A program made the position numbers and the translations under genes. This document shows positions 1 to 56,420 of a stretch of DNA of 64,000 bases, piece after piece. Source of the DNA: a virus (lineage: Duplodnaviria > Heunggongvirae > Uroviricota > Caudoviricetes); the IMG/VR virus record IMGVR_UViG_2706796243_000001; one strand, written 5' to 3'. The stretch's first letter is position 1, and each line of letters opens with the position of its first letter. The notes under the pieces are model-generated. The model had not been told where the DNA came from, searched no databases, and saw nothing but the letters and a program-made list of their open reading frames with translations.

Positions 1-75
1 TTTTTACCATACAGGGTAGGCGAACGTACAGCTATTTATTAAAACGCCTCACAAAGCGATACAGGAGCTTTTAAG

Positions 76-921
76 ATGACAACCGTTTTCCACACCACAG
101 AGATTCTCGATCATACACAGAACGAATACCCTCACCCGGATCTTGAATCCGAGTTACTCAAGATATTTGAGCGCACAGAGCACGAGCTATCTTACCTTGA
201 ATTTTCAACTGATGAAGATGATGAGGCAGAGTTTAACAAACGACACGGGAATGTAGAGTCTGAGCTTTCTGAACTGAAGGATATAGCGAAGGGTTCAGAG
301 CTTTATGACTATAAGAATTATGTCACCCAACTGGAAGCGCTTGTCGTTACTCTCACAGACTCCCTGATCTCTGTTGGCAAACGGGCAGATACCCTGAGTA
401 AAGATATTTTGTCTGTTGATAACAAGATGGGTCGTGCAGAAATCTCGGATGAGTTTTTGTATCTGTCGGGAGAAGCGGTAAGGGAATTTAACACAGACTC
501 CAGCCTTTACAGCGCTCTTGAGTCTCGCGGTTGGAATAAGTTTCAGCGTGGTTTTGTTTTCAACATCATTCAGGAAGAGAGAACTGGTTACGCAGGTTCT
601 ATTGTTGTTGAGCTTATGCTGCATGGGAGCACTGCAAACAATATGGTTGTTGGTGTTCAGGACTGGATCACTCTTTGCGGTAAGACACTGTGTTTATGTG
701 ACGGTGATGATACCTTAAGAATAGATGCTGTCAATGGGAGCATTGATATTATCTTGACGAAGGATAAAAAGGTCTATCGCTTCAGGCTCTCAGAGATGAA
801 GGATCTTTTCATGGACGTGATGAATCCAACTGATGATGAAATCCTGATGTATAAAATGTCGCACCATGCAGAGTATGATATTTGTGGGTGGAGAGAGACT
901 TTCGGAAAGAAACCAAAATGA
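76..921 (+). CDS. hypothetical protein (281 aa)
   Basis: Long ORF with an upstream AGGAG-like site at ~63-70; no recognisable motifs. Confidence 0.5.
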   Translation: MTTVFHTTEILDHTQNEYPHPDLESELLKIFERTEHELSYLEFSTDEDDEAEFNKRHGNVESELSELKDIAKGSELYDYKNYVTQLEALVVTLTDSLISVGKRADTLSKDILSVDNKMGRAEISDEFLYLSGEAVREFNTDSSLYSALESRGWNKFQRGFVFNIIQEERTGYAGSIVVELMLHGSTANNMVVGVQDWITLCGKTLCLCDGDDTLRIDAVNGSIDIILTKDKKVYRFRLSEMKDLFMDVMNPTDDEILMYKMSHHAEYDICGWRETFGKKPK

Positions 922-948
922 AAACCGTGTGATATTTAGGAGGAAGGT

Positions 949-1536
949 ATGAGTTTAGATTTGGAAATGGAATCGAAACCATCTACAAAACATCGTAGTT
1001 TAGTATGTGGTGTTGGCATAAACGATGCACCGTTTATCACGAGTATGCGGAAAGATGGAAAACTCCATCACCATACGGCCTACAAGGATTGGCACAATAT
1101 GATAAACAGATGCTACAGCGGTAAATACCCCTCTTATCATGGGGTTGTTGTGGTCGATAAGTGGCATTATTTTATGAACTTTCATACATGGTGGTGCAAC
1201 AATTATCAACAAGGATATGCACTTGACAAAGATTTGCTGGTAGAAGGGAACAAGGCTTACGGCCCTGATACTTGTATTTACATCCCTGTGTGGTTGAACA
1301 GTTATATTTCTCGAAATGGAAAACATGCAAGAGGTGTAACATTTGACAAAAAACTTTGTAAGTTCAAGGCACAGAGATCTAAAAATGACCCAAGGGGAAG
1401 GTATATAGGATATTTTGACACAGAGGAAGAGGCACATGCTGCATGGGAATCTGAGAATATATTTGATAACGACCTGAAATCACTTGATATTTCTCTTCAA
1501 GAACTTGTTTTGAAACGGTACGGTTTTTCAAAATGA
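949..1536 (+). CDS. putative freestanding homing-endonuclease-like protein with C-terminal AP2-type DNA-binding domain
   Basis: RBS GGAGGAAGG before the ATG. W-x2-M-x2-RC...Y.GV.V...W..F..F..W block followed by a GRYIGYFDTEEEAHAAWE AP2-like segment. Paralog of the ORF at 52611..53252. Confidence 0.5.
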   Translation: MSLDLEMESKPSTKHRSLVCGVGINDAPFITSMRKDGKLHHHTAYKDWHNMINRCYSGKYPSYHGVVVVDKWHYFMNFHTWWCNNYQQGYALDKDLLVEGNKAYGPDTCIYIPVWLNSYISRNGKHARGVTFDKKLCKFKAQRSKNDPRGRYIGYFDTEEEAHAAWESENIFDNDLKSLDISLQELVLKRYGFSK

Positions 1537-1801
1537 TATTTGTTTGCCCTTGATATTTGTCGGGGAATTTTGAACTGGAAATCAAAATGAAATTCGAAAT
1601 GGTTTTTGAAATGGTTTTCCCTCATAGCCGGGTTGTAAATCCATTTTATTGTGATTTAAGATTTTGGAAAGTACAGCAACTTATCCCAAACCCCACCCAT
1701 GCAACATAATGATTACTAATGGAATTTCCATGCCCCGGTACGATAATTGTGGCAAAATTCCAGAAATGTTAAATCCCTTTTGTTGGGTTTTAAGTCCGAG
1801 T

Positions 1802-2005
1802 ACTCGATCAAGTTTTCGATTTCAAAATCGTATTTTTTCTTTATCGCTGAAAAAATTTTTCTGGATAACACTGGGTACTCGATCGGTTTTTCAAAATCGA
1901 AAACGTATTTTTTCTGTCTATCGAAAAAATTTTTCCGCGCGGTTCTCGATCGAGTTTTCAGTTTTGAAAACGTATTTTTTCTATAGAGCGAAAAAATTTT
2001 TTAGG
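1802..2005. repeat. three tandem ~70-bp direct repeats (CTCGATCNAGTTTTC...AAAACGTATTTTTTCT...GAAAAAATTTTT)
   Basis: Repeat units begin at about 1802, 1877 and 1945. Each unit carries A/T tracts and near-palindromes (CGATTTCAAAATCG, GAAAAAATTTTTC). Confidence 0.8.
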
Positions 2006-2349
2006 GATCGGTAATTTTCTCACACACGCACACGCGATGTCAAGAGAAATTTTTTGTTGAATGAGAATCATTCTCATTTGCAGAATAGCGGGCAGGTTCG
2101 GTGTTTGTCTCGCGATTCCCGTTACCCCTCGCCATGTGTAAATAATAGCATAACCACTCCACGGATCAAGCGTCTTTACAAATCTTTACAAATGTCATCA
2201 GGTCGAACTACCGGCGATCCACCTTCCGACCTGGCACCCGCGCCCGGTACGTTAGCCCCGCCTTTTCGCCGTGGGGTGGCGTTTCCTCTTCTTTGAACTA
2301 ACTATAACCCAGGGCCGCGCCGATTGCAAGCCCCAGGACCAAATATTTT

Positions 2350-2532
2350 TTACAGGGTATCCGCTAAAACTTCCCCGTTTTCCGCTACCACTTTCGCCCG
2401 GTAGAATCCGCCGTTAAGCATACGCAAGGCATGAGGCAACGGCACCGATCTAGACTGACAATGATTTGCTGATGTTTCCCAGGTGAAAAGGGTCACCATT
2501 GTTTCGCTTGTTACTACGTTTACGTTTTCCAT
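2350..2532 (-). CDS. hypothetical small protein (60 aa), divergently transcribed
   Basis: The minus-strand sequence upstream reads GGGTAAAGAAAATG (the same SD type as the plus-strand early genes) with a TTGCAT-17-ACTATA promoter-like sequence. Confidence 0.35.
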   Translation of the reverse strand: MENVNVVTSETMVTLFTWETSANHCQSRSVPLPHALRMLNGGFYRAKVVAENGEVLADTL

Positions 2533-2639
2533 TTTCTTTACCCGCCGTTGTTGTCTCAGTCCTTATATAGTACACGATCCCCGCCAGGATGCAACAAGTA
2601 TAAAGGAAAAACTTTTTTAAAAATTTTTGTCCTGGGGTA

Positions 2640-2668
2640 TTGACGGGAGTTAGTAAGCCGTTTACTAT
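2640..2668 (+). promoter_or_regulatory. sigma70-like early promoter TTGACG-17-TACTAT
   Basis: -35/-10 hexamers with a 17-nt spacer, upstream of the 2720 ORF. Confidence 0.5.
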
Positions 2669-2719
2669 GTATCACATCAGGGCGACACACCGACGCCCCA
2701 CACTGAAAAGGTAAAGCAA

Positions 2720-3250
2720 ATGGACACTATCGAAACTTTCAATTATTCCGAAAACGGCATTGATTTTAGCGTTGACGTTGTATGCTTTAATACAAATGAT
2801 ACATTTGGCGATGAGTGGGAATTGACCGACGATCACCAGGGCGGGGTCACTGTAAAGAATCCTAACGCGGATCGCAATAGTTATAAATATGCTATCCCGT
2901 TACAATACAGCCTGAAAGAGCGGATCGCAGACTTGATCGCCCGTGGTGATGATAACCCATCGCGCCACGCTTACGAGGCCGCACAGGACGCTTTGGAGCG
3001 CGATTTAAACGCCAGTGATTATGGTTTCAGTGTGACCGCCACCGCGAACGGGATCACCCTCCTGGATAATGAGATTATTGGTTGTAGTTTTACCTATTCA
3101 TACCAGGACGAAAGCGATTTGTTGACCGAAGCAAAAGAAGTTTACAACGGCAACGGGATCAACGGTGAAGCGCTGGACGCTGCAAAAAAGGCAGGCGCGG
3201 AGATCATCGCAAACTTTGACGGCCTGAAAAATATTTTAGAAAAAGCTTGA
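2720..3250 (+). CDS. hypothetical protein (176 aa)
   Basis: AAAGGTAAAGCAAATG RBS/start; acidic protein. Confidence 0.55.
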   Translation: MDTIETFNYSENGIDFSVDVVCFNTNDTFGDEWELTDDHQGGVTVKNPNADRNSYKYAIPLQYSLKERIADLIARGDDNPSRHAYEAAQDALERDLNASDYGFSVTATANGITLLDNEIIGCSFTYSYQDESDLLTEAKEVYNGNGINGEALDAAKKAGAEIIANFDGLKNILEKA

Positions 3251-3275
3251 TCACCAAGTCCGGATCGGTTATCTT
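3247..3275 (+). promoter_or_regulatory. PeSL-type promoter TTGATC-17(..CGGATCGGT)-TATCTT
   Basis: The conserved CGGATCGGT spacer core is shared with the promoters at 4400 and 8473. Confidence 0.5.
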
Positions 3276-3282
3276 ACTAACA

Positions 3283-3302
3283 AGCCGGGGACGCGCCCCG
3301 GC
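3283..3302 (+). repeat. PeSL stem-loop GCCGGGG-ACGC-CCCCGGC
   Basis: Perfect GC-rich inverted repeat in the 5' leader of the next ORF. Confidence 0.7.
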
Positions 3303-3322
3303 ACTAACGAGAGGTAAACAAA

Positions 3323-3562
3323 ATGGAAACATTATTGATTGACAATGACGGGTCTTTGTTGGCGGAAGTTACGGCGATTGACGCGCCTTTGTGGTGGCAA
3401 CAAAAGGGGCTAACCAAAACCCGATCCGGGTATGGGACCAAGATCCCTACACAATGGAAAGTTAATTTCCAGGGGCGTGATCGTCGGGTATACGTTGATC
3501 AATATAGTAACGCCGGACACACTTATATAATTGTGAAAGGTCAAAAAATAACTGTAAGATAA
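3323..3562 (+). CDS. hypothetical protein (79 aa)
   Basis: GAGAGGTAAACAAAATG RBS/start. Confidence 0.5.
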   Translation: METLLIDNDGSLLAEVTAIDAPLWWQQKGLTKTRSGYGTKIPTQWKVNFQGRDRRVYVDQYSNAGHTYIIVKGQKITVR

Positions 3563-3565
3563 TTG

Positions 3566-3595
3566 TTGACGCTGGCTAATGTGTGGGGTTATAAT
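3566..3595 (+). promoter_or_regulatory. sigma70-like promoter TTGACG-18-TATAAT
   Basis: Consensus hexamers upstream of the 3647 start. Confidence 0.55.
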
Positions 3596-3646
3596 CTCCA
3601 CACATTGACAAGCGAAACAAATCAACCACACAAACGAGGTTACACC

Positions 3647-4398
<752 letters not shown>

Positions 4399-4399
4399 C

Positions 4400-4428
4400 T
4401 TGCAAACCATCGGCGGATCGGTTACATT
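4400..4428 (+). promoter_or_regulatory. PeSL-type promoter TTGCAA-17(..CGGATCGGT)-TACATT
   Basis: Same architecture as the promoters at 3247 and 8473. Confidence 0.5.
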
Positions 4429-4437
4429 ATTAATCAA

Positions 4438-4456
4438 GGCGGGAGAGGTTCCCGCC
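4438..4456 (+). repeat. PeSL stem-loop GGCGGGAG-AGG-TTCCCGCC
   Basis: Inverted repeat immediately after the promoter and before AAAGGTAAAGAAAATG. Confidence 0.65.
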
Positions 4457-4476
4457 AGACTGAAAAGGTAAAGAAA

Positions 4477-4875
4477 ATGGCAAAGTTTAAAACATCTATC
4501 AATCTGTATGACGCTGTAAACCGCCTGGCCTCATTGTCACGCACGAACCAAACCGGGGATTTTTTCGTTGTTGTTGATTCCTTTGATTTTGGTCGCGATG
4601 TTAACGGAAACACGATCAACAAATACCGCGCCACGCTTCACCGTGGGGATCTGGTATCCGTCCAAAATGGTTACACTGGTTTCGGTGTGCTGGTCCTGGA
4701 GTCGCCCCGTCGCCGGGAACAATCACACAACGAAGGGCAAAGCGCAGCGCTTTACTGGCTTGAAAAAATCGGTTATGATCTGGCTTATGAATCAATGACC
4801 GAAGCGCCCCACACTAAAAAGCGCGCTTATCGCCATGTGTACCGGGTAACTAACAATTATTTAAAGGCGGTGTGA
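4477..4875 (+). CDS. hypothetical protein (132 aa)
   Basis: AAAAGGTAAAGAAAATG RBS/start. Confidence 0.55.
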   Translation: MAKFKTSINLYDAVNRLASLSRTNQTGDFFVVVDSFDFGRDVNGNTINKYRATLHRGDLVSVQNGYTGFGVLVLESPRRREQSHNEGQSAALYWLEKIGYDLAYESMTEAPHTKKRAYRHVYRVTNNYLKAV

Positions 4876-4876
4876 A

Positions 4877-5062
4877 ATGGTCGTAAGCATGGATAACGGG
4901 CAAGTTTTAACGATCTTTAATTCTGCAAACCGCACAATTGAGGACGTAAAGCAAGAGGCAAGCCAACGGATCGACAATCTAAAGATCCCCGGTAAGCTGT
5001 TAGATGATAGCTTGAAAGTGATCGCCGCTTTCGATTCTTTCGGGAAAGAAATCATTAAATAA
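4877..5062 (+). CDS. hypothetical small protein (61 aa)
   Basis: ATG two nt after the preceding stop, with AAGGCGG upstream. Confidence 0.35.
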   Translation: MVVSMDNGQVLTIFNSANRTIEDVKQEASQRIDNLKIPGKLLDDSLKVIAAFDSFGKEIIK

Positions 5063-5158
5063 TTGTTGACTCTTAATAGGTGGGGCTTTAAGATAAGCCC
5101 TACCAAGTAAGAGAAATAACCCGGCAATAATGCCAAACCAAACAAAAGGTAAATTATC

Positions 5159-5725
5159 ATGAATAACAAAATCACTTTCAACGATCAAGATGTTGCCGTT
5201 TTCAACTTCCTGAAAGAAAAAGGGATTGATTTTAAAGCGGTATATGGTGGCGTTAACAACGATCCAGAATGGCAAGCTGATTTGTTTTTCGTGAGTTTCG
5301 AAAAAGGCGGGAAGATTTACCGCTCTGAATTTAAAACGGGAACGGGTCACCGTGTAGGCCGTCACACTGGCTTAACCCCAACCGACGCAAGAGAATTAGC
5401 TAAAGTTGATGCTAAGGTTTCCATCGTTGATCAAAATAACTGGACACGCGACGATTACAAGCGCAACGACAATAAAGCAATGTCTTTCGGTTACCGTGTT
5501 TATGTTGCGACACCTTGCGCCGCAAACGTGCTTTCCTGCCTGCTGTCAGATATTGATCTGGGATCTGAATCTCATGCTGATTTTTGCGCTAATATGGGCT
5601 ATGATGAGGATAGCCGCAAAGGTTTAGAGATTTATCTTGCTTGTCAGAAGACGGGCGAGGAACTCCGCAAAGTGTTTACAGGTGAAGACCTGGAGACACT
5701 CCGCGAGATGTTAGAGGATTATTAA
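5159..5725 (+). CDS. hypothetical protein (188 aa)
   Basis: AAAAGGTAAATTATCATG RBS/start, preceded by a TTGACT promoter-like sequence and the hairpin GGGCTT/AAGCCC (5082-5100). Confidence 0.55.
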   Translation: MNNKITFNDQDVAVFNFLKEKGIDFKAVYGGVNNDPEWQADLFFVSFEKGGKIYRSEFKTGTGHRVGRHTGLTPTDARELAKVDAKVSIVDQNNWTRDDYKRNDNKAMSFGYRVYVATPCAANVLSCLLSDIDLGSESHADFCANMGYDEDSRKGLEIYLACQKTGEELRKVFTGEDLETLREMLEDY

Positions 5726-5727
5726 AA

Positions 5728-6075
5728 GTGTTTAAAATCCTGTTTTTGGTGGCTGCTGCTGCTATCTACTGGAAGATCCCCGCCAGGTTATGGCGGGGCC
5801 TGCTGTGGGTTTATTATGAATACAGGATCGGCAAAGTGTACCATTATTTAGAATACAGATTCCACGGGAACCACTACCACACCCGGCGATCTGGTCCGTT
5901 AAATGATCTTGAGGGTAACGGCTTATTGTGTGAAGTGAAAAAGCGGGGCGGAGTAGTCACGTATCACAAAGAAGGCACAAAGGAGCAGATCGCGGAGATC
6001 ATCGAATGGCGAGCTAATGAATTAGCCGAGAAACAAGGCCGGATCTTTGAACATGCAAACAACAACCGAAAATAA
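5728..6075 (+). CDS. hypothetical protein, N-terminal TM helix (GTG start)
   Basis: GTG start eight nt after GAGGA; hydrophobic N-terminus. Confidence 0.35.
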   Translation: MFKILFLVAAAAIYWKIPARLWRGLLWVYYEYRIGKVYHYLEYRFHGNHYHTRRSGPLNDLEGNGLLCEVKKRGGVVTYHKEGTKEQIAEIIEWRANELAEKQGRIFEHANNNRK

Positions 6076-6091
6076 AACGAGGGTTTAAAAT

Positions 6092-6295
6092 ATGCGCAAC
6101 ATTGAAAAGATGACAAGCAAGCGTGATCGCCTGGCATATGGGGAAGTAAACGAGCGACGCCAGCGAAACGACAAACTACACAAGCCGGAGCGCATCGCCA
6201 AAACCTGGACGCCGGACCGCTACGATCCAAATCTTAACAAGCGGTTAGCCGAAAGAAAGCGCGCTTTACAGTGGCAAGCCGTACAAGATGATTAA
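6092..6295 (+). CDS. hypothetical basic small protein (67 aa)
   Basis: GAGGG RBS; Arg/Lys-rich. Confidence 0.4.
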   Translation: MRNIEKMTSKRDRLAYGEVNERRQRNDKLHKPERIAKTWTPDRYDPNLNKRLAERKRALQWQAVQDD

Positions 6296-6302
6296 ACGAA
6301 AG

Positions 6303-6327
6303 GCCGGGATAATTCCCGGCTTTTTCT
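6303..6327 (+). terminator. rho-independent terminator (GGCCGGGA-TAAT-TCCCGGC + TTTTTCT)
   Basis: GC hairpin of the PeSL hairpin family followed by a T-run. Confidence 0.7.
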
Positions 6328-6560
6328 ATGCAGAAAAGTGAATTTAAGGAGATCTCCGCGAGGTGATGCACTTGCCAGGGTCAAGCCTGGAAGCGCTTAG
6401 AAAGCGTTTTAGAGCGTTTTGCAGGGTATGACATAACCCCGCCACGCTCAAAGGCCCTTAAATTTAGTAACGCAGTGAAACTATCTGCATAATTGTCGCT
6501 ATTCATGCAAAATCGCTGCATATGAGAACAATTCTCAACAAAAATAATTTAAAATAGTGC

Positions 6561-6589
6561 TTGCGTCCTGCTGTGGTTATGTTATCTTT
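6561..6589 (+). promoter_or_regulatory. sigma70-like promoter TTGCGT-17-TATCTT
   Basis: Hexamers upstream of the 6640 ORF. Confidence 0.4.
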
Positions 6590-6639
6590 AATGCGTAGGG
6601 CGGCAATGGTGCCAACCACACAAACCAAAGGTAAATAAA

Positions 6640-6924
6640 ATGCAAAACGTAAAATCTCAGATCGCGGCGCTTGAATCTCAATTCCTGGGTAAAATGGTTT
6701 ACCACAATTACGGGCAAATCGGTTTCGGTGTGGTTACTGGCATTGATGACCGTGATCCGCTTAAATTACGTTTGCGTGTTAAGTTTACCCGCCACAATAC
6801 CCCTGAGCATATCAAAAAATATGACAACCGGGCGGATCGTGTTCGTTGCCTCTTGCCTCAATCGGTCACGGTTTCCCGTGTACGTTATGAGGATTACAAC
6901 CGCACAAACCAGATCAAAAAATAA
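6640..6924 (+). CDS. hypothetical protein (94 aa)
   Basis: CAAAGGTAAATAAAATG RBS/start. Confidence 0.5.
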   Translation: MQNVKSQIAALESQFLGKMVYHNYGQIGFGVVTGIDDRDPLKLRLRVKFTRHNTPEHIKKYDNRADRVRCLLPQSVTVSRVRYEDYNRTNQIKK

Positions 6925-6927
6925 CGC

Positions 6928-6955
6928 TTGACACCCGCGCCGCTTATGCTATGAT
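6928..6955 (+). promoter_or_regulatory. sigma70-like promoter TTGACA-16-TATGAT
   Basis: Hexamers directly after the stop of the 6640 ORF. Confidence 0.45.
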
Positions 6956-7000
6956 TCTACATAGGCGGCAACGGTGCCACCACAAACGAGGGTAAACAAA

Positions 7001-7102
7001 ATGTTAGATTATACTAATTCTTGGTGTGTGGTGGCGCAGGTATCTTTTTTGGTCGCAATGCTTGCCGTTGTTGCTATCTATATCATTTTAGAGGATAATT
7101 GA
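7001..7102 (+). CDS. putative 33-aa hydrophobic peptide (not in ORF track)
   Basis: GAGGGTAAACAAAATG RBS/start. Translation reads MLDYTNSWCVVAQVSFLVAMLAVVAIYIILEDN, a single TM helix. Confidence 0.3.
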   Translation: MLDYTNSWCVVAQVSFLVAMLAVVAIYIILEDN

Positions 7103-7104
7103 TC

Positions 7105-7323
7105 ATGTTCGGATTTATTGTAATGGCTTGTCACATTTCCCTTACGACCATGAAATTAGAGTGTAATTGGATTGTAAAGGAAACTTTTACAGAAGAAAAG
7201 GCTTGCAACGTGTACGAAAACAGCTATAATCTTCTGAAAGGCGAGCAATTCGGCCTTTGTGATGAGTTGAAAGATGGCGCTAAAAAAGGCGACAAAACCC
7301 AAATTCTTTACCTGAAAAAATAA
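7105..7323 (+). CDS. hypothetical protein (72 aa; ATG 7105)
   Basis: GAGGATAATTGATCATG. Confidence 0.4.
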   Translation: MFGFIVMACHISLTTMKLECNWIVKETFTEEKACNVYENSYNLLKGEQFGLCDELKDGAKKGDKTQILYLKK

Positions 7324-7333
7324 GGTTAATCAA

Positions 7334-7519
7334 ATGTTTGAAGTTTTCGCGGGTATCTGTTTTTATGGCGCATCTATGATGATGCAATGTGATGATTTTG
7401 TTATTGAATCATACGATGATCCGCTATCTTGCGAGATCGCCGCTAGTGGTTTACGCCGTGATCCTGATTATATCAATCCGGCCTGTATTCCTTCGCCAGA
7501 AGTGGAACCAATGCCATAA
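7334..7519 (+). CDS. hypothetical small acidic protein (61 aa)
   Basis: AAGG upstream of the ATG. Confidence 0.4.
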   Translation: MFEVFAGICFYGASMMMQCDDFVIESYDDPLSCEIAASGLRRDPDYINPACIPSPEVEPMP

Positions 7520-7565
7520 AAACATTTGACAACGGCGATCCGTTGATCAATAATTACCAGACAAG

Positions 7566-7584
7566 GCCGGGAGCGGTTCCCGGT
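7566..7584 (+). repeat. PeSL stem-loop GGCCGGGA-GCGG-TTCCCGGTC
   Basis: Follows a TTGACA promoter-like sequence at 7526. Confidence 0.65.
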
Positions 7585-7603
7585 CACCTGGTAGAGGTGA
7601 ATC

Positions 7604-7720
7604 ATGAAAGGTTACAAAGTAGAATACACTACAGAAAACCCGGTTTACATTGAGGCGCGTTTTATGTGTCGCCTGGTGTGGTCTTTCGTGATCTTCCTGC
7701 TGTTATTATCTTTCATCTAA
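7604..7720 (+). CDS. putative 38-aa membrane peptide (not in ORF track)
   Basis: GGTAGAGGTGAATCATG. Translation reads MKGYKVEYTTENPVYIEARFMCRLVWSFVIFLLLLSFI. Confidence 0.3.
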   Translation: MKGYKVEYTTENPVYIEARFMCRLVWSFVIFLLLLSFI

Positions 7721-7735
7721 AACGAGGTTTTAAAA

Positions 7736-8077
7736 ATGGAACTTGCAAATAAATTCTTTTTCCTGGCTGGCGTTTCCGATAATGCAAAATGTGATTTTCG
7801 TCGTTTCGATGATAAAACCTTAATGCGTTTTTGCCATGTTAATGACGCTGTGAACGGGGATCGCCTGGACATTATGATCCGCACGGAAACAACCATTGAT
7901 CACGCATCACAGCAGGCAGTAAAAGATCATTACGTGTCTTATCAGCTTGAAGGCGCGAAAGGCTACGTAAAGCAGGCTGACAGCTTGCCGATCCGTCAAT
8001 CTGTGGACGTGTTCGCCGTGGTTGTTGCGATTGTGAATGATGTTTTTCCGGTTGACTCTGAAAACCAGATCGGCTAA
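7736..8077 (+). CDS. hypothetical protein (113 aa)
   Basis: ACGAGG RBS. Confidence 0.5.
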   Translation: MELANKFFFLAGVSDNAKCDFRRFDDKTLMRFCHVNDAVNGDRLDIMIRTETTIDHASQQAVKDHYVSYQLEGAKGYVKQADSLPIRQSVDVFAVVVAIVNDVFPVDSENQIG

Positions 8078-8089
8078 AGTATTCTTAAA

Positions 8090-8109
8090 GGCCGGGGATC
8101 GCCCCCGGT
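8090..8109 (+). repeat. PeSL stem-loop GGCCGGGG-ATCG-CCCCCGGTC
   Basis: GC inverted repeat in the leader of the 8132 ORF. Confidence 0.65.
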
Positions 8110-8131
8110 CATAATGGGAAGGTAAAGATTT

Positions 8132-8464
8132 ATGAAAAATAAAAATGTTTATTGGTCATCCTCATGCGGTCGCCTTTGTCTCATCTTTCGGGACCGTGAG
8201 CAGGTAGAAGAGATCGCCCACTCTGGGGACTGTGAAGCGTCAACGGTGGAGGCCCTGCCTTATTTCCGGGACGGCTTACAGTTTAGCGCATACAGCGACC
8301 AAATGATCCGCGATTACCTGGCCGAAACAGGGATCGAGCGTGAAGGGGTAGACGGGATCGACAATATGGATCGCCACACCCTGGAAATGTACCTGCTATG
8401 GATCGCCGCTGGTGATATGCTGGACATTTTCAACGTTGGCGATGATTACGGCGAGGATGAATAA
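8132..8464 (+). CDS. hypothetical acidic protein (110 aa)
   Basis: GGGAAGGTAAAGATTTATG. Confidence 0.5.
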   Translation: MKNKNVYWSSSCGRLCLIFRDREQVEEIAHSGDCEASTVEALPYFRDGLQFSAYSDQMIRDYLAETGIEREGVDGIDNMDRHTLEMYLLWIAAGDMLDIFNVGDDYGEDE

Positions 8465-8472
8465 AAAAAAGC

Positions 8473-8501
8473 TTGCAAGCCAGGCGCGGATCGGTTAATA
8501 T
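8473..8501 (+). promoter_or_regulatory. PeSL-type promoter TTGCAA-17(..CGGATCGGT)-TAATAT
   Basis: Same spacer core as the promoters at 3247 and 4400. Confidence 0.5.
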
Positions 8502-8509
8502 CTTTTTGA

Positions 8510-8531
8510 GGCCGGGGAATGGTTCCCCGGC
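8510..8531 (+). repeat. PeSL stem-loop GGCCGGGGAA-TG-GTTCCCCGGC
   Basis: Perfect inverted repeat. Confidence 0.7.
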
Positions 8532-8552
8532 AAGCCGGAAAGGTAAACAAAA

Positions 8553-8942
8553 ATGCAAAATTTCATCACTATCAGCAATAATGACAAACTGCAATCTTTG
8601 ATCGGTATCTTAAACGATGTTTCGCCGTTTATCGTTAAAAATCTTTATGCACATTTGAAAAATGTTAAGCCCGCTATCTGGTCTGCATATTGCCACGACC
8701 AGGACGAAAGCGCGGCGGCGTACATGCTCGAAATGTTAAAGGATAGTATGCAATTTTGTTTATCTCAAAGCGTTATTAATGAAGTTGATAGCCGTTTATC
8801 TTTGGCTATGGAATATCAAGCGCAAGCGGTGTATAATCAGTTAGACATTGAAGAGCAGCAAGATCAAGACTTATTCTGGGATCGTGCTGATGCTCAAAGC
8901 GCCTTTGATGACCGTTTAGCAATGTATGCTAACGAATACTAA
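8553..8942 (+). CDS. hypothetical protein (129 aa)
   Basis: GGAAAGGTAAACAAAAATG. Confidence 0.5.
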   Translation: MQNFITISNNDKLQSLIGILNDVSPFIVKNLYAHLKNVKPAIWSAYCHDQDESAAAYMLEMLKDSMQFCLSQSVINEVDSRLSLAMEYQAQAVYNQLDIEEQQDQDLFWDRADAQSAFDDRLAMYANEY

Positions 8943-8951
8943 ACAAAACAA

Positions 8952-8970
8952 GGCCGGGGACATCCCCGGC
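8952..8970 (+). repeat. PeSL stem-loop GGCCGGGG-ACAT-CCCCGGC
   Basis: Perfect inverted repeat with no T-run. Confidence 0.65.
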
Positions 8971-8992
8971 ATAATCTGAAAGGTAAATTAAA

Positions 8993-9217
8993 ATGATTAA
9001 AAATGCAACTGGTCAAACTGAATTTTTACGCAACCTTATTGCAGGTGAAAAATCTGTGTGGTATTGTAAGGATCAAAACGTCGATCCGGAAATGCGGAAA
9101 ATGACCGCCACCGTTTGCAAAGCGAAATTAGGCTTTAAGATCCGCCAATCAAAAGCCCTGATAGTTACCCCGGATTCTATCCCGCAAGCGATCATTATTG
9201 TCGAGCGCATATCATGA
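8993..9217 (+). CDS. hypothetical protein (74 aa)
   Basis: GAAAGGTAAATTAAAATG. Confidence 0.45.
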   Translation: MIKNATGQTEFLRNLIAGEKSVWYCKDQNVDPEMRKMTATVCKAKLGFKIRQSKALIVTPDSIPQAIIIVERIS

Positions 9218-9441
9218 AAAAAGTTATTTTTGACAACAAGAAAAACACCGTTACCGCTCAAAAGGTCGGGGAGTATATCGAACTAACGGATCTGTATAGT
9301 GACGCGCCGATCCGCCTGTCTCCTGAAGAGTATAAAAATAGTGAGCTTGTCAAGCATGTTGTAGCTATGGAATTTGAATTTTTCGAATACCTGGCCGATT
9401 TTGACGATGATTTTAATAGTGATGGGCTTTACGGCGCATAA
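9214..9441 (+). CDS. hypothetical acidic protein (75 aa)
   Basis: ATGA start/stop overlap with the preceding ORF. Confidence 0.45.
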   Translation: MKKVIFDNKKNTVTAQKVGEYIELTDLYSDAPIRLSPEEYKNSELVKHVVAMEFEFFEYLADFDDDFNSDGLYGA

Positions 9442-9458
9442 CCACACAACCAGGACAA

Positions 9459-9941
9459 ATGATCATGAAATATGAAATAACCCCGGAAGATATGAAAGGG
9501 CGCGGCCTGGATAGCGCACGATACACCCTTACAAAGCGTGAAAATCTGCAACTGTTTTCTATCTGCTTTATTCATCCGGACGATCCTGATTTTCAATCCG
9601 ATCCTGTAGAGTTCTGGGCTAGTGGCTGGGACACCGCCTACAGTGAATTGATGGACAATGTAACCACGTTTGAATCTTTCGGCCTGTCAAGTTTTAGCGA
9701 GACGGATCGCCCCCTGGAATGTGAGCAGGTGAGAGCGTGGATCAATCACTACAACACCCTTGATCACCTGGTCTTTATCTTCGGGGAGACAAAAGAAGAG
9801 ATGATTAGAAAAGCGCTTGACTTTAACGATCATTGTGCTTATGTGCTTCGCAAAATGTGCGAAATGGTGGACGCATTGAGGAAGGCGGAAAGTTTCGACG
9901 GCGGATCGGTTTACAGTCAATCAATGCACCGTTACCGATAA
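9459..9941 (+). CDS. hypothetical protein (160 aa)
   Basis: ORF with normal amino-acid composition. Confidence 0.5.
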   Translation: MIMKYEITPEDMKGRGLDSARYTLTKRENLQLFSICFIHPDDPDFQSDPVEFWASGWDTAYSELMDNVTTFESFGLSSFSETDRPLECEQVRAWINHYNTLDHLVFIFGETKEEMIRKALDFNDHCAYVLRKMCEMVDALRKAESFDGGSVYSQSMHRYR

Positions 9942-9974
9942 GGCCAAAATCTTTACAAAACCAGGGCTTGCTTT

Positions 9975-10172
9975 ATGGCTGTTTTGTCAAGTGTTTTTTA
10001 TGGCTGGATTGCCTGCCTTGTACTCAGTGACGCAACGGCCCAGACAGTTAACACCATGATCGACGGCTTGCAATTGGCGTTTTATTGTGTGGTGAAATAT
10101 CACAGATTTAAACGGTTCGACCGTTATGATCTACCGTTCATCATTGCCGGATCACTGGCTATCATGTTGTAA
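9975..10172 (+). CDS. hypothetical membrane protein (65 aa)
   Basis: Two hydrophobic segments; followed by a terminator. Confidence 0.4.
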   Translation: MAVLSSVFYGWIACLVLSDATAQTVNTMIDGLQLAFYCVVKYHRFKRFDRYDLPFIIAGSLAIML

Positions 10173-10176
10173 GTAA

Positions 10177-10200
10177 GGCCGGGAATTGTCCCGGCTTTTG
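10177..10200 (+). terminator. rho-independent terminator (GGCCGGGAAT-TG-TCCCGGC + TTTTG)
   Basis: Hairpin of the PeSL family plus a T-run, closing the plus-strand early block. Confidence 0.65.
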
Positions 10201-12322
10201 CATATCACACAAACACCCCAAACACAACACCAAATCTTTACCCGCTTTTATGTTGGTTGCAATATCGCAACTGAGAATTATTCTCACCAACCCCGTTGGC
10301 AATTATGCAAAAAAGTGAATTTAAAGAGATCCCAGGAAAGGAATATAACGGCAAGGCTAACGAGAAAACACGCTCAAAACTCGTTATATTGCGTTTAAAA
10401 GGGTATTGCTTATCGCCTTTGACCCACTAACACCCCAAAATTGATAACGCATGTTATCAACTGAATAAAACACGCATTTTTAAGCGTTTCATGTGAATAC
10501 GTGATAATAACTCTCATTTGATAACTTTTCTCATCTAAGCCATTGTGTGAACTGTCTTTTTTGAGCATAAAAATAAAATCTTGTCAAATAAAATAATCGT
10601 TCGCGTGATCGTGGTGAGTGGCGCGAGCGTAGCGAGCGACACTATAACACGAGAGTAACTCAAATGATAATACTTATCATTTTCGTTCGCGTTATCGTGG
10701 CTCGTAGACGCTACGATATAATCACATACGTGATTAAGCAACGGCTAATCATTTACATTATTATTCATTTACAATGAATAGTTACACAATGAAATTATCA
10801 CACTCGCCACGATAACACCGATCAACTAACGTTGATCGCTCTCGTGTTATAGTGTCCAGATAAAGGGGATTCACAAAACCCCTTTGGTCAATCTGGACAT
10901 TGTTTTCCGTGGCGAAAACAACCCGTAAGGGCTTTGTGTTATAGTGTCGCGAGGTGATGAAAGTCAAGATCTTTTTATTAGCAATAAATCGCCGTTAATG
11001 GTTGACAAACCATGATTAATCGATCTGTAAATCAGGCCGCTGGCCTGCTGAAAGGCTTGTTTTTGAGCATAAAAGATGCCTCAAGTGTCAAGCTTTTTCT
11101 TGATAGGAAAAGTCTATTAATCCCTTGTGTAGCAATACAGAAAATAGTTACAATAAGTAACTATTTCAATGCTTTAGCATTGCCGGGTATCCGGTCCATC
11201 ACAGGGCTAAACGAGAATTGTTATCATGTGGCAAAATGCTCAAAAGCAGAGTATTGCTAAAAACAATTTTCCCTCCCTGTCAAGTGTTTTGTGCGAAATT
11301 TACAAAATATTTTTATTTGCGGAATGATTTTCATTTAGAAATTGAAATGAAAATCGAAATTATAATGATTATGAAAAGCATTATCATCTACAAAACACCC
11401 CACAAAATGAATAATAACAGGTGTAAACTGTCACAGTGGTAACATATAGCAGGCTAATCATCGTCATAGTAATGGTTCATTGATGCAATGGTAACATAGT
11501 GCAACTATCACCCATGCAACAGTCCGATCTGTGGTGCGTATAACGTGTATTATGTTAAATAGACCAACCCACACAAAAGTAAGCAAGTCAAGGGCAAATC
11601 GTGCTGTAAGCTGGCTAATCAATCAAATCATCATAGTTTCATTAGGCAATCATTAGTCACACAAGTAATCATCATGCAATCATCGTGCCAAAAACTCGCA
11701 AGGGTCTCGACATCGGACCACTCAGATATTTTGTAAAGATCCTTGACAACCTTCGGGGGCTGTGATTGTCCGTCTAGCACATCAGACATAGAGCCAACGG
11801 ATATTTTTCGTCCCCAAGAGATACAAGACAGGGCCTCTTTTATTTCCCTCCGGGCGGGGGAGGGGTGGGTTTTGATATGTTTACCCGTATACGGGTTAGC
11901 CTGTGGCTAATCGCCCTGCGATATGTTTACAGCATCGACACTTCAGGCTACATGTGTCGAAGAAATGCAATTCCTTAAACATGTTGTGTTGCAGAGCAAT
12001 GAACGAGTTCACCCGTGCAACGGGCATTGTGTGTTAATGAAATGTACAACCTTTCACGCAGGAGCGGTGGTACAGTTCAACAATCAGGACATCCAACGTC
12101 CGTAAAGATTGTTGAATGAGAATTATTCAATTCTCAGGTGCAAGGCACCCTTGGTGTTTGTTTCGTGCAGACCTTCAGCACCTGTGACTCTTTAGGTAAT
12201 AGTAGCAGGGCTGACAGTTTACGTCAAGAGGAAATTGATGTGCCTCTTTAGACAAAATTGATGGGACTCTTCAGGCAGGAATAGAGGAGCCACTTCAGGC
12301 TCCCCTTGTGTGGTGGGTCACT

Positions 12323-12703
12323 TCAGGTAAAGATCAATTTAAAGACGAGAATGAGAACAAGTGCTACAAGAGCGTATATTCCCCGCATTACTAATTGATG
12401 TGTGGGACTGGGATCTATGGGGATAATCATCATCTTTTGTACACTGTTGGTGATAACATTCCCTTGATCATCTAACCACTCTCTTACACTTTTCCTTCTC
12501 TCTTCTTCCAACCATTTTGTGTGGGCCTTATGCTCCTCTATAATTTTCTTTGCGTTTTCCAGGGAGTGGTATGGGTTTCCTGCAATCATATCGAAGTTGT
12601 CTCTTACGCTGGGCGTAAAGTGGCGCAGTGGTTCACCTTTGTAGAAAACTTCCCACGATTCTAGTCCATATTCCCTTTTGTGGAGGATCTTGTAATCACT
12701 CAT
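12323..12703 (-). CDS. hypothetical tail-anchored membrane protein (126 aa; start trimmed to ATG 12703)
   Basis: GAGGTG RBS before MSDYKIL...; C-terminal TM helix. The N-terminal extension in the track looks non-coding. Confidence 0.45.
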   Translation of the reverse strand: MSDYKILHKREYGLESWEVFYKGEPLRHFTPSVRDNFDMIAGNPYHSLENAKKIIEEHKAHTKWLEEERRKSVREWLDDQGNVITNSVQKMMIIPIDPSPTHQLVMRGIYALVALVLILVFKLIFT

Positions 12704-12893
12704 GCTGCACCTCAGAACGGGTTCAGAAGGACACATGCTGCGAAGTTGCAGAGCGCAAGGAGTTGAGAGGGAAGCATCCACCAGCGCTTCCCTTCTGGGA
12801 ACATCTGCACAAGACCTCTGCATCCGACAAGTTCGAAGACCACATTGACAGATACCAGAAGCCATAAGGCCCAGAGTATTGCGAACAGGGCTG

Positions 12894-13121
12894 TCATATT
12901 GTGTACTCCACGTTGATCTGGGACAGTTGTACCTCTTCCGATTGAGGAATGGCTACAAATTTAGATGTTCTCAGATTGAATGCAGTGACAAATCCACGGA
13001 AATCACCCATAGTTGATTCACCAACAATATGCGGCTGACCACAGTAAATGAATCCATCCCCTATGTCGAGAGAACGTGCAGCCACACAGGTTTTATTCTT
13101 TTCAGTGACGGTTACTTTCAT
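12894..13121 (-). CDS. hypothetical protein (75 aa)
   Basis: Tightly packed minus-strand ORF. Confidence 0.4.
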   Translation of the reverse strand: MKVTVTEKNKTCVAARSLDIGDGFIYCGQPHIVGESTMGDFRGFVTAFNLRTSKFVAIPQSEEVQLSQINVEYTI

Positions 13122-13348
13122 AAATTCTCCTTAAAAGTATGGTAAGGGTTAGGATTTTGCGGCACGGCCTGCGGCGCTGGAGAGCTATAGAGTTTAGTCA
13201 CCTCGTAGCCGTCTTTTGCGCAAAGGATCTTAAAGGCTGAATCTGCATCTTCACGTTCAACGAAGTCAATAACCTGACTTGTTAAAGCAATTGATCGGGT
13301 GGCAGAATAACCTTCACACTTCTTGATAACAACTAATAATTTAAACAT
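13118..13348 (-). CDS. hypothetical protein (76 aa)
   Basis: ATGA-type overlap with its neighbours. Confidence 0.4.
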   Translation of the reverse strand: MFKLLVVIKKCEGYSATRSIALTSQVIDFVEREDADSAFKILCAKDGYEVTKLYSSPAPQAVPQNPNPYHTFKENL

Positions 13349-13349
13349 T

Positions 13350-13673
13350 CTATCTCCTTAACCAGTTCTCAACTGGAATATTTTTAAAACTCAAGTGCCA
13401 GCGATGTGGCTTATGTCCACGCCTGTGGTCAAGGAGACAGGTGTCCTCCGGAACCTTCAGGTGCATACCGTCAATGTCATAATACACCCCATCGATAAGT
13501 GTGTAAACATGTCCTTCGATATCACTGTAATGGATCTCCGCCTGCGGGAAGATATGTTTTAGCACAAGGGCCACCTGATAACATTTCCCGTTTTTACCTA
13601 CCCATGAGGCATCAACTTGAGGCGGGAATATGTCTCTAATTTTTCTGATAAGGCTTGTTATGTTATTTTCCAT
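13350..13673 (-). CDS. hypothetical protein (107 aa)
   Basis: ORF within the minus-strand array. Confidence 0.45.
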   Translation of the reverse strand: MENNITSLIRKIRDIFPPQVDASWVGKNGKCYQVALVLKHIFPQAEIHYSDIEGHVYTLIDGVYYDIDGMHLKVPEDTCLLDHRRGHKPHRWHLSFKNIPVENWLRR

Positions 13674-13687
13674 ATCTCCCCGTCTTT

Positions 13688-13990
13688 TTATTTATTGAAA
13701 AATTTTCTGGCAGCTTTTTGTGCCTGACCTTGACGCTTGAATTCCTCCTCTCGGAAACGCCACTTTCCATTATCACTGTCGAACCAGACTTCTCTTTTAA
13801 TAAATTCAAGAATGCTGTCCCCACCCATCTCTTTCTCCTTTGATTGTTCGTAAGCCTCTTCAGATTCAAACCAGTTATCTATAGAATCTCCGTGAATTTC
13901 CATAAGCAACTTTGCGTAGGTTATGCTTTGCATCTTATCTCCAGAGCTTAAACTTGTAACGGATAACAGATCCAAGCAACATACCCGCAT
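13688..13990 (-). CDS. hypothetical protein (100 aa)
   Basis: ORF; charged. Confidence 0.4.
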   Translation of the reverse strand: MRVCCLDLLSVTSLSSGDKMQSITYAKLLMEIHGDSIDNWFESEEAYEQSKEKEMGGDSILEFIKREVWFDSDNGKWRFREEEFKRQGQAQKAARKFFNK

Positions 13991-14129
13991 AACTCAAGAT
14001 GGCGAGCAACATCACCATGAAAAGTGCGCCTGGTCCGTAGTTGGAAGCCAGAAAGATAATGAATGCCAGAATTGTGAAAATTAACGGTATCCCGATAATT
14101 GCGTTCTTCATGTTGTTTGTGATCTTCAT
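13935..14129 (-). CDS. hypothetical membrane protein (64 aa, two TM helices)
   Basis: Hydrophobic; overlaps the 3' end of the neighbouring ORF. Confidence 0.35.
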   Translation of the reverse strand: MKITNNMKNAIIGIPLIFTILAFIIFLASNYGPGALFMVMLLAILSYAGMLLGSVIRYKFKLWR

Positions 14130-14395
14130 ACAATCTCCTTCAGTGGTTGAAAACTGACTGGTAGTGTACCACCGTTAACCCATTTTAAGCAATCATTATA
14201 TCCAGGCAGTCTCTTTTCACCACCCATGCCTTTGTACACCCACGGGATGTATGAGCTTTTGAACTCACGTTTACCACTCTCAGACTGGTAATACAGCCAC
14301 ATACCCTTTTCATTTGTTCCTTCATCTATCCAGCGGATCACCCAATCTGAAGTGCCGATCATTTTCAGTTTTCTTCGTTTAAACCACCCAAACAT
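14126..14395 (-). CDS. hypothetical protein (89 aa)
   Basis: ORF. Confidence 0.4.
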   Translation of the reverse strand: MFGWFKRRKLKMIGTSDWVIRWIDEGTNEKGMWLYYQSESGKREFKSSYIPWVYKGMGGEKRLPGYNDCLKWVNGGTLPVSFQPLKEIV

Positions 14396-14571
14396 TCTGG
14401 TCTCCTTTCAACGTATCGCCATGTTTTCTTGTAGTGTGCAATAACTTCTGCTGTCTTGTCAAGAGGAACACCTGATTTTATAAGCCTCCACTCCCCATCC
14501 AACGAACAACCGTCGCTGCTCATCCTGCCATAAATACTGTACTTCATCTGACCCCCTTGCGTAATCTCCAT
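14365..14571 (-). CDS. hypothetical protein (68 aa)
   Basis: ORF. Confidence 0.35.
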   Translation of the reverse strand: MEITQGGQMKYSIYGRMSSDGCSLDGEWRLIKSGVPLDKTAEVIAHYKKTWRYVERRPECLGGLNEEN

Positions 14572-14667
14572 ATCTGTATTATGACATCAAGAAATAAAGT
14601 GTCAAGTGTTGACCGCAAATGAATTTGTTGGTATGCTCCCCACATAGATTTTAGAGGAGGGATTATT

Positions 14668-55488: not shown

Positions 55489-55851
55489 ATGGTGGTGGAG
55501 ATAAAGATTGGTGATAACACTGTGAACATAAGGGATGGCTCTTACGTCACTATCCCGACACAGTGGCTTTTTGATGACCGTCTCTCACCACAAGATTTGC
55601 AAAGGTTGATAAAATTGTGGTGGAGGTATGATTACTTCAAGAGTTTAAACCCTGATGGTGGTGATGAGGTATTCTTTCCATCTCAAAAATCTTTGTGTCA
55701 TCTTTTTGGGTTGAGTGAGAAGTCACAACCGAAAGTATCAGAGTTCTTGACAAAGATAGAGTATCTTGGATACATTCGCCGCATACGCTCTGGTTTTCAA
55801 GATTCTAAAGGGAATGCAAAACCAAGGCATTACATAATTGTTAATAGATAG
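55489..55851 (+). CDS. winged-helix DNA-binding protein (120 aa)
   Basis: AGGAGA RBS; wHTH-like SQKSLCHLFGLSEKSQPKVSEFLTKIEYLGYIRRI. Confidence 0.5.
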   Translation: MVVEIKIGDNTVNIRDGSYVTIPTQWLFDDRLSPQDLQRLIKLWWRYDYFKSLNPDGGDEVFFPSQKSLCHLFGLSEKSQPKVSEFLTKIEYLGYIRRIRSGFQDSKGNAKPRHYIIVNR

Positions 55852-55859
55852 AGGATGTT

Positions 55860-56420
55860 ATGCTTGAAGTTATAAAATCGAAAGAGATAAGTGCTTCTGA
55901 AAAGGTTCTTTTGATGTTTATGGGGTTGAATGGTGTTGGGGTTTATACTTACCAAGATTTCATAAACTCCACAGGGTTGAGTAGAGCCACTGTTGGTAGG
56001 TCACTCTCTTCTCTGTATGAAAAGGGTTGGATCGAGAAGAAAACCGCCATCTCTGACAGTGGAGCGGAGAGTATTCAGTACAGTATTTCGTTTGGTGATT
56101 CTACAAATCCAAAATTTGAAAGAACCTGCTACGTTTATGTTCAAGAGCTTGCAGGCCCAGGCTTAACAATCGGAAAAGTTGGTATAGCATTTAATGTTTT
56201 CGAAAGAATGCGCCAACAATCAAAGAAAAGTTTGTTTCAGCACAAACTGATGTACTCCAAGCTGTTCAAAAGTTATGCTGAAGCTGCCAAAGTTGAGCAG
56301 ATTGTGTTGAGTGCGATCCCACAATTTGTTTGTGAAAAAGATTGGTTACCTGACGGCTTCACAGAGACAATCCACAAGCAAGATATTTTAAAGGCTATTC
56401 AAATAATTGAGGAGAAATAA
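55860..56420 (+). CDS. winged-helix DNA-binding protein (186 aa)
   Basis: YQDFINSTGLSRATVGRSLSSLYEKGWIEKK, a MarR/Rep-like wHTH. Confidence 0.5.
   Translation: MLEVIKSKEISASEKVLLMFMGLNGVGVYTYQDFINSTGLSRATVGRSLSSLYEKGWIEKKTAISDSGAESIQYSISFGDSTNPKFERTCYVYVQELAGPGLTIGKVGIAFNVFERMRQQSKKSLFQHKLMYSKLFKSYAEAAKVEQIVLSAIPQFVCEKDWLPDGFTETIHKQDILKAIQIIEEK

Follow-up and report, generated by a model that had tools for sequence, protein, structure and literature searches.

The window analysed here, a continuous stretch of 64,000 nt, corresponds to bases 83746–147745 of the 147,745 bp genome of Salmonella phage SSE121 (NC_027351.1); window bases 1–15000 are 100% identical to positions 83746–98745 of that genome. 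SSE121 is a virulent myovirus of the genus Seunavirus (Vequintavirinae), and phage PVP-SE1 is 99.8% identical to it. The window starts with a block of small, early-type ORFs on the plus strand; many of the early ORFs of SSE121 are without known function. The phage also encodes the ribonucleotide reductases NrdAB and NrdDG. Two long stretches of the window carry no annotated genes, 1537–2719 and 9942–11630, and the second of these is conserved at 70–97% in Seunavirus and Mydovirus phages. Two unannotated ORFs were noticed in them. A 65-aa ATG ORF (9975–10172), absent from the RefSeq annotation, ends just before a strong terminator (10175–10199) and may be the real last gene of the plus strand block, and a 60-aa ORF on the minus strand (2350–2532) has a phage-typical RBS context (GGTAAAGAAAATG) and matches GAP31_044 in position. 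A 52-aa ORF (10410–10568) and the small ORFs within 2079–2296 were rejected, being without an RBS, unconserved, or interrupted by indels that are not multiples of three.

Several palindromes are scattered through the non-coding DNA of the window. The initial annotation had described a 15-bp palindrome at four intergenic positions, and this description is accurate. Three copies are perfect inverted repeats: TGAGAATCATTCTCA (2062–2076, site 1), TGAGAACAATTCTCA (6523–6537, site 2) and TGAGAATTATTCTCA (10272–10286, site 3). They are the only occurrences of TGAGAA-N3-TTCTCA in the 147,745 bp genome, and the mean number of such palindromes in 100 dinucleotide-preserving shuffles of the window was 0.00. 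The fourth, TGAGAATTATTCAATTCTCA (12117–12136, site 4), has a 5-bp insertion that sets the half-sites 8 nt apart instead of 3; when spacers of 0 to 13 nt were scanned genome-wide, this N8 form was the sole match besides N3. All four lie outside annotated CDS. Sites 1 and 4 have the 15-nt TTGTTGAATGAGAAT in common (2054–2068 and 12109–12123), as had been reported, and their similarity runs about 50 nt beyond it; GGTGTTTGTYTCGYG is also common to both. Site 4 is probably a decayed paralog of the site-1 module rather than a working variant. Only the perfectly symmetrical members had been listed in the initial annotation. They belong to a larger family, and related sites that are stronger (10663, 11370, 11210, 10500 and 10517) had been missed.

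The family has the form of the box recognized by Fur, the ferric uptake regulator, a dimeric winged-helix protein. In its 7-1-7 form the enterobacterial Fur box reads TGATAATnATTATCA. The motif TGAGAATnATTCTCA fits it at 12 of 14 specified positions, and the true E. coli sites of the ent/fep cluster show 1–4 mismatches to the same consensus. The palindromic 19-mer of the phage is the same as that of the host box (GATAATGATAATCATTATC) found at ryhB, fhuA, exbB, fecI and fepB-entC. For scoring, a matrix was derived de novo with a palindrome-constrained Gibbs sampler from the upstream regions of 12 E. coli K-12 genes, picked from general knowledge, that we take to be Fur-regulated (fepA-fes, fepD-entS, fepB-entC, fhuA, cirA, fecI, fecA, tonB, exbB, fur, ryhB and fiu). 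The sampler converged on AATGATAATCATTATCATT, and the training sites score 6–21.5 bits under their own matrix. Several of the E. coli sites it found (fhuA, exbB, ryhB, fecI) contain the GAGAAT/ATTCTC half-site of the phage boxes; those at ryhB and fecI read AATAATAATCATTCTCATT and TATGAGAATGGTTATCATT, respectively.

Under this matrix, the box at site 1 (starting at 2060) reaches 21.9 bits, which exceeds every training site. It shares 17 of 19 positions with the box located at E. coli ryhB, and the match to the host consensus extends over all 19 positions, the flanking AAT/ATT included. The box at 10663 (21.3 bits) is near the top of the training range, while those at 11370 (16.5 bits), 6521 (14.4 bits) and 11210 (13.2 bits) fall inside it (6.1–21.5 bits). 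The poor flanks of site 3 (10270) limit it to 9.3 bits, and site 4 (12117), at less than 7 bits, fails the Fur matrix. The whole SSE121 genome holds 6 matches of at least 14 bits where 0.4 are expected, and the non-coding DNA of window positions 1–13000 (3,749 nt) holds 10 of at least 10 bits where 0.27 are expected. None of 500 dinucleotide shuffles of that non-coding DNA reached 10 such matches, so the enrichment is not a by-product of A/T-richness.

The positions of the boxes were compared with those of promoters, all of which are predictions. Box 1 (AATGAGAATCATTCTCATT, 2060–2078, enclosing the palindrome at 2062–2076) lies at the left edge of a conserved non-coding element. To its left, a leftward sigma-70-type promoter with a TG extension (TTGACA-18-GAAAAT, 2014–2043, minus strand) is conserved in the Seunavirus genomes compared, and box 1 occupies −71 to −53 relative to it, just upstream of its A-tract. 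Box 2 (6521–6539, core 6523–6537) occupies −74 to −56 of a plus strand promoter read from the sequence in front of gp133 (TTGCGT-16-TATCTT with TG extension, 6561–6588), just upstream of its A/T-rich, UP-like stretch; both boxes are thus placed at about −72 to −54. Box 3 (10270–10288) has its perfect 7-1-7 core at 10272–10286. It plausibly covers the −10 of a weak putative plus strand promoter, TTGCAA-16-TATTCT (10257–10284, an 8/12 match that is sub-threshold in the promoter scan), the TATTCT of which (10279–10284) is inside the box.

Further along the same non-coding region, two adjacent Fur-like boxes span 10500–10535, starting at 10500 (11.9 bits) and 10517 (10.3 bits). They lie at the end of a unit of about 200 bp (10304–10516) that is paralogous to another at 6327–6537, and they align with site 2, which ends that other unit. 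Each unit has TATGCAnAAAAGTGAATTTAAnGAGATC at its start and a Fur-like box at its end. A terminator of the form GCCGGGA....TCCCGGC precedes each, directly at 6327 in one case and about 100 nt before 10304, beyond box 3, in the other. A separate 8-4-8 palindrome, TTGATAACGCATGTTATCAA (10441–10460), is situated between Fur-like boxes and is not explained by the Fur matrix.

The strong box AATGATAATACTTATCATT at 10663 is overlapped by a second box shifted by 6 bp (10669, 13.5 bits), the pair spanning 10663–10687. A leftward sigma-70-type promoter with TG extension (TTATCA-18-TATAGT, 10641–10670, minus strand) has its −35 hexamer inside box 10663; no other site shows operator geometry as clearly, the promoter itself being predicted. 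The −10 block of this promoter is one of three copies of CTCTCGTGTTATAGTGTC, at 10638–10655 (minus strand), 10839–10856 (plus) and 10936–10950 (plus), each with the extended −10 TGTTATAGT; the three copies suggest a divergent promoter cluster within the 9942–11630 region. The box AACGAGAATTGTTATCATG (11210–11228) is kept in phages EspYZU14 and LNA4. Four overlapping boxes make up a cluster at 11346–11388, with starts at 11346, 11358, 11364 and 11370 (spacings of 12, 6 and 6 bp) and scores of 10.0, 10.6, 11.6 and 16.5 bits; this cluster is also present in KE22 and EspYZU14.

The non-coding element that box 1 borders (2079–2296, about 215 bp) is widespread, matching 360 phage records by BLAST at 75–100% identity, and a Fur box array always stands at its border. 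The groups that carry it include Seunavirus, Certrevirus (PhiTE), Mydovirus and Phapecoctavirus (Stephanstirmvirinae), and in rV5-type phages the match is limited to its first ~70 nt. The last ~75 nt are almost invariant, and the indels within the element are not multiples of three. At the 3′ end of its plus strand is a terminator-like hairpin with invariant G·U pairs and a pyrimidine tail. Conserved leftward promoters are predicted inside the element (2169–2142) and just to its right (2329–2301), both on the minus strand. Searches against Rfam returned two tRNAs only for the whole window at the gathering threshold, and nothing relevant for positions 1900–2450 at E≤10. The predicted RNA fold of 2090–2295 is no more stable than its shuffles (z = +0.5). 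Covariation over 31 homologs is weak, with one covarying pair (AU in 17, GC in 14) and the remainder invariant. No match to the element was found by BLAST in 5,426 E. coli genomes, so it was not copied from host sequence. A direct repeat, TCTTTACAAA, occurs 2.1 times at 2173–2193 inside the element and is nearly invariant over the 31 loci. A plus strand promoter over site 1 (TTGAAT-18-CAGAAT) was considered as a conserved feature and rejected: position 2 of its nnGAAT hexamer is A, T or G across loci, and no conserved plus strand sigma-70 promoter can be defined at site 1 across the 31-locus alignment.

The boxes can be followed through related phages. At 31 distinct loci homologous to the 2079–2296 element, taken from a phage collection, IMG/VR and metagenomes, 1–6 boxes of at least 13 bits are found at the same (left) edge of the element, without exception. 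The spacing between tandem boxes is mostly 29 bp (36 of 52 intervals), and in most loci the distance between the proximal box and the conserved element is constant. At this array locus, two boxes are present in GAP31, LNA4 and KE22 and a single one in SSE121 and EspYZU14, a difference that fits the loss of one 29-bp unit. Among the orthologous sites of KE22, LNA4, GAP31 and EspYZU14 are TGATAATCATTCTCA, TGAGAAGCATTATCA and sequences like them; position 4 of the half-site interchanges between G and T (GAGAAT/GATAAT), with TGATAAT appearing at the same sites. Orthologous sites in relatives reach 23.5–25.1 bits, the box of phage 4MG being the perfect consensus at 25.1 bits. Elsewhere, EspYZU14 also has site 2, which GAP31, LNA4 and KE22 lack, site 3 is identical in the E. 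coli phage LNA4, and boxes 10500/10517 are conserved in relatives. The ortholog of box 10663 scores 23.3 bits in KE22 and 21.3 in EspYZU14; in GAP31 and LNA4, a symmetric T3C/A17G change lowers the Fur score to 13.5 bits. Relatives also possess extra strong Fur-like boxes, up to 22.8 bits, that have no SSE121 counterpart (L004 at 10130; L006 at 11751 and 11966; L007 at 11555 and 11591), so the set of boxes changes readily from one close relative to another.

Beyond the phages, the 19-mer of site 1 is found unchanged in the genomes of at least 120 bacterial species, against a chance estimate of about 2 in the 596 Gb searched. Twenty loci were picked by hand from these, without a formal enrichment test, and 10 hand-picked ORFs that start beside the match were scanned for domains. 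They comprise six TonB-dependent receptors (Plug domains), a Bfd ferredoxin, a P19-type protein for Fe2+ transport (Iron_transport), a solute-binding protein of the Fe type (SBP_bac_6) and an esterase, so that in this hand-picked sample all ten are iron-related or compatible with such a role. Judged by its sequence context, this bacterial neighborhood is as expected of a Fur box. The corresponding scan of IMG/VR with the 15-mer gave at least 120 matches and is uninformative as evidence, because 14 specified bases are expected many times by chance (an estimate).

Taken with the matrix scores, these observations argue that the palindromes and the related boxes are probably Fur-binding sites in our own estimate, with the Fur protein of the host as by far the most likely ligand. 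Phage CB7 of the related genus Certrevirus is reported to have no phage RNA polymerase and to use early promoters of the sigma-70/UP type (PMC7344957), and a host regulator acting on promoters of this kind would be plausible for that reason. The initial annotation had read the 7-1-7 symmetry as an operator for a dimeric HTH regulator, either a phage repressor or a host factor; the kind of site holds, the host-factor alternative is favored by the evidence, and the phage-repressor alternative is unlikely.

The main role of the boxes, to which we assign a probability of roughly 0.6, would be iron-dependent control of adjacent phage transcription by Fe-Fur. A virulent phage dependent on the sigma-70 RNA polymerase of its host would in this way carry sites for the host's ferric uptake regulator. 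In an iron-replete cell, dimers of Fe2+-Fur would occupy the boxes in 1537–2719, in 9942–11630 and upstream of gp133, and would modulate the adjacent promoters. A box over the −35 (10663) or over the −10 (10272) has the geometry expected of repression. Those at 2060 and 6521, above the UP-like stretch, could block the alpha subunit of the polymerase or act as anti-silencers. From the conserved leftward promoters at 2329–2301 and 2169–2142, polymerase would travel into the boxes, a roadblock geometry. Under iron limitation, Fur would leave the DNA and transcription would change, so that infection would be coupled to the iron status of the host; both the direction of regulation and the transcripts affected are likewise predictions. 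Such coupling would matter to the phage because NrdAB and NrdDG are iron-dependent reductases. Some features speak against this reading. The boxes lie in the path of the conserved leftward promoters and do not overlap them, none of the boxes has an iron-related gene downstream, discrete boxes 29 bp apart are an unusual architecture for a Fur operator, sites 3 and 4 are weak, site 1 is without a definable conserved plus strand promoter, and the GAP31 and LNA4 ortholog of box 10663 has a lowered Fur score.

The main rival to promoter control, with which it is compatible, is that the boxes act as a decoy. Replicating along with the phage genome, they would soak up Fe-Fur and derepress host iron uptake, feeding the ribonucleotide reductases that the phage encodes. 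Titration of this kind is established general knowledge: multicopy plasmids with Fur boxes derepress a Fur-controlled reporter, which is the basis of the Fur titration assay (FURTA), and many high-affinity boxes on a replicating element could similarly lower the level of free Fe-Fur. FURTA is a laboratory artefact of high-copy plasmids, of which the phage boxes would be a hypothetical natural equivalent. An array of one to six discrete, high-scoring boxes beside the conserved element would suit such a sink, as would the presence of about 10 boxes of at least 10 bits in the non-coding DNA of SSE121. The variation in copy number between close relatives, with the 29-bp spacing dominant, fits expansion and contraction of a repeat unit, and most array boxes do not overlap a recognizable promoter. 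On the other side, a cell contains thousands of Fur molecules, and the few boxes on each genome may be insufficient to titrate this abundant protein within a lytic cycle. SSE121 and EspYZU14 hold just one box at the array locus, and the fixed distance of the proximal box from the element in most loci suggests a local cis function. The variable multi-box arrays thus favor a sink, while the single box of SSE121 and the fixed proximal position favor a local role in cis; on balance we regard the decoy as an unlikely main function.

An alternative that dispenses with Fur is a dimeric regulator encoded by the phage, with Fur-like specificity by coincidence; we consider it improbable. The early ORFs without known function leave room for an unrecognized small protein of this kind. 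The phage half-sites prefer GAGAAT to the GATAAT of the Fur consensus (34 vs 16), and the symmetric change in the GAP31/LNA4 ortholog of box 10663 also counts in its favor. Against it, all 19 positions of the host consensus are matched, with the perfect consensus reached in 4MG, and the exact 19-mer adjoins iron-uptake genes in unrelated bacteria at the hand-picked loci. A tblastn search of the phage genome with E. coli Fur found no homolog below E=2, and gp212, annotated as a ‘transcriptional regulator’, has no Pfam match. No regulator gene adjoins any of the sites, and since the phage is also virulent, a phage repressor is unlikely. The two wHTH ORFs at 55489–55851 and 55860–56420, which the initial annotation had put forward as candidates, lie about 44 kb from the sites, and their HTH matches are all sub-threshold, so the proposal is unsupported for them. 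In PHROGs they are related to DnaD-like helicase loaders, replication initiators and a T5orf172-type endonuclease, and they look like replication or loader proteins. In the 55489–57222 region these ORFs are located directly upstream of genes for ribose-phosphate pyrophosphokinase and nicotinamide phosphoribosyltransferase, and one of them matches the ‘wHTH-PRTase associated’ Pfam family below threshold. Instead of regulating the palindrome, the two proteins could bind iterons or belong to an NAD module.

The weakest alternative, that the palindromes form a hairpin or cruciform (a terminator, or a processing, origin or packaging signal) and resemble Fur boxes incidentally, is very improbable: the SSE121 copies are perfect inverted repeats in regions rich in iteron-like repeats and promoters, and the GAP31/LNA4 change preserves self-complementarity, but the stems are A/T-rich around a 1–3 nt loop (1-nt center) and lack a U-tract, none of the four was called as a hairpin in the terminator scan (whose one nearby call, 10253–10274 upstream of site 3, overlaps that palindrome only in part), and neither the match to the Fur matrix nor the bacterial genomic context would be explained. 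Variation within the boxes bears on the same point. Perfect symmetry is found in only 4 of 42 distinct boxes, and the two halves of a box differ at 2.1 positions on average, compared with 1.95 for halves paired at random. The halves vary independently, and selection therefore acts on each half-site, not on self-complementarity, as would be expected of sites bound by a dimeric protein and not of an RNA or DNA hairpin.

Considered as Fur sites, the phage boxes resemble those of the host in their GAGAAT/ATTCTC half-sites and in the overlapping boxes in 6-bp phase at 10663/10669 and within 11346–11388. Unlike host Fur boxes, they reside on a virulent genome with no iron gene downstream, and unlike a compact host operator over its promoter, the main phage locus consists of arrays of discrete sites, 29 bp apart, in 1–6 copies. 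Fur boxes on phages have precedents. One is located at the stx1 promoter of Shiga-toxin prophages. Another is found at sitABCD on lambdoid coliphages (PMC6969025). These phages likewise carry a host Fur site and so wire phage-borne transcription into the Fur regulon, but they are temperate, and have single boxes at the promoters of cargo genes (a toxin and a metal transporter), whereas the SSE121-type boxes belong to a strictly lytic phage family, in which they occupy non-coding control regions and have no link to a cargo gene. Lytic cyanophages provide a second comparison, with PhoB boxes upstream of pstS and phoA, and with NtcA sites. The logic is shared, in that sites for a host nutrient regulator in a lytic genome make expression follow nutrient status. 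The regulator, the nutrient and the host group are different, and the cyanophage sites precede auxiliary metabolic genes, while the SSE121 boxes precede non-coding DNA or small early ORFs.

The type of site is thus well known, while conserved arrays of such boxes in the non-coding control regions of virulent phages are undescribed in the literature searched. No paper in that search connected Fur with Vequintavirinae or Stephanstirmvirinae, and the genome papers of rV5, PhiTE and CB7 mention neither Fur nor iron. If Fur does bind, a large group of lytic phages, isolated widely and infecting Salmonella, E. coli, Klebsiella, Cronobacter and Pectobacterium, would sense or manipulate the iron status of the host. 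Many phages of this group are under study for therapy and biocontrol, and as iron limitation is normal for bacteria inside animal hosts, the dynamics of infection could differ between broth and tissue. The cyanophage type of wiring to a host nutrient regulator would then extend to enterobacterial phages and to iron. A more specific proposal for the two subfamilies, which we put forward tentatively and hold to be on the doubtful side, is that Fur-box arrays are conserved throughout Vequintavirinae and Stephanstirmvirinae and could serve as an iron gate or roadblock for the hitherto undescribed ~215-bp element (an RNA or an origin-associated transcript), or as a sink for Fur that replicates with the phage and raises host iron uptake by derepression, for the benefit of the phage ribonucleotide reductases. 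Through its Fur-box neighbor, the conserved non-coding element becomes directly testable.

Immediately to the left of the box 1 region, three tandem repeats of 67–75 bp (1800–2008) each open with G(T)ACTCGATC and include A/T palindromes, for example GAAAAAATTTTTC. A relationship of these repeats to the pseudo-ToxI of PhiTE was considered and set aside, as units of 67–75 nt compare with 36 nt for ToxI and no resemblance was seen on inspection. The repeats are iteron-like and might mark a replication origin. PhiTE has about eight copies of GGTCTCGATC at the equivalent place (L017, 1090–1360).
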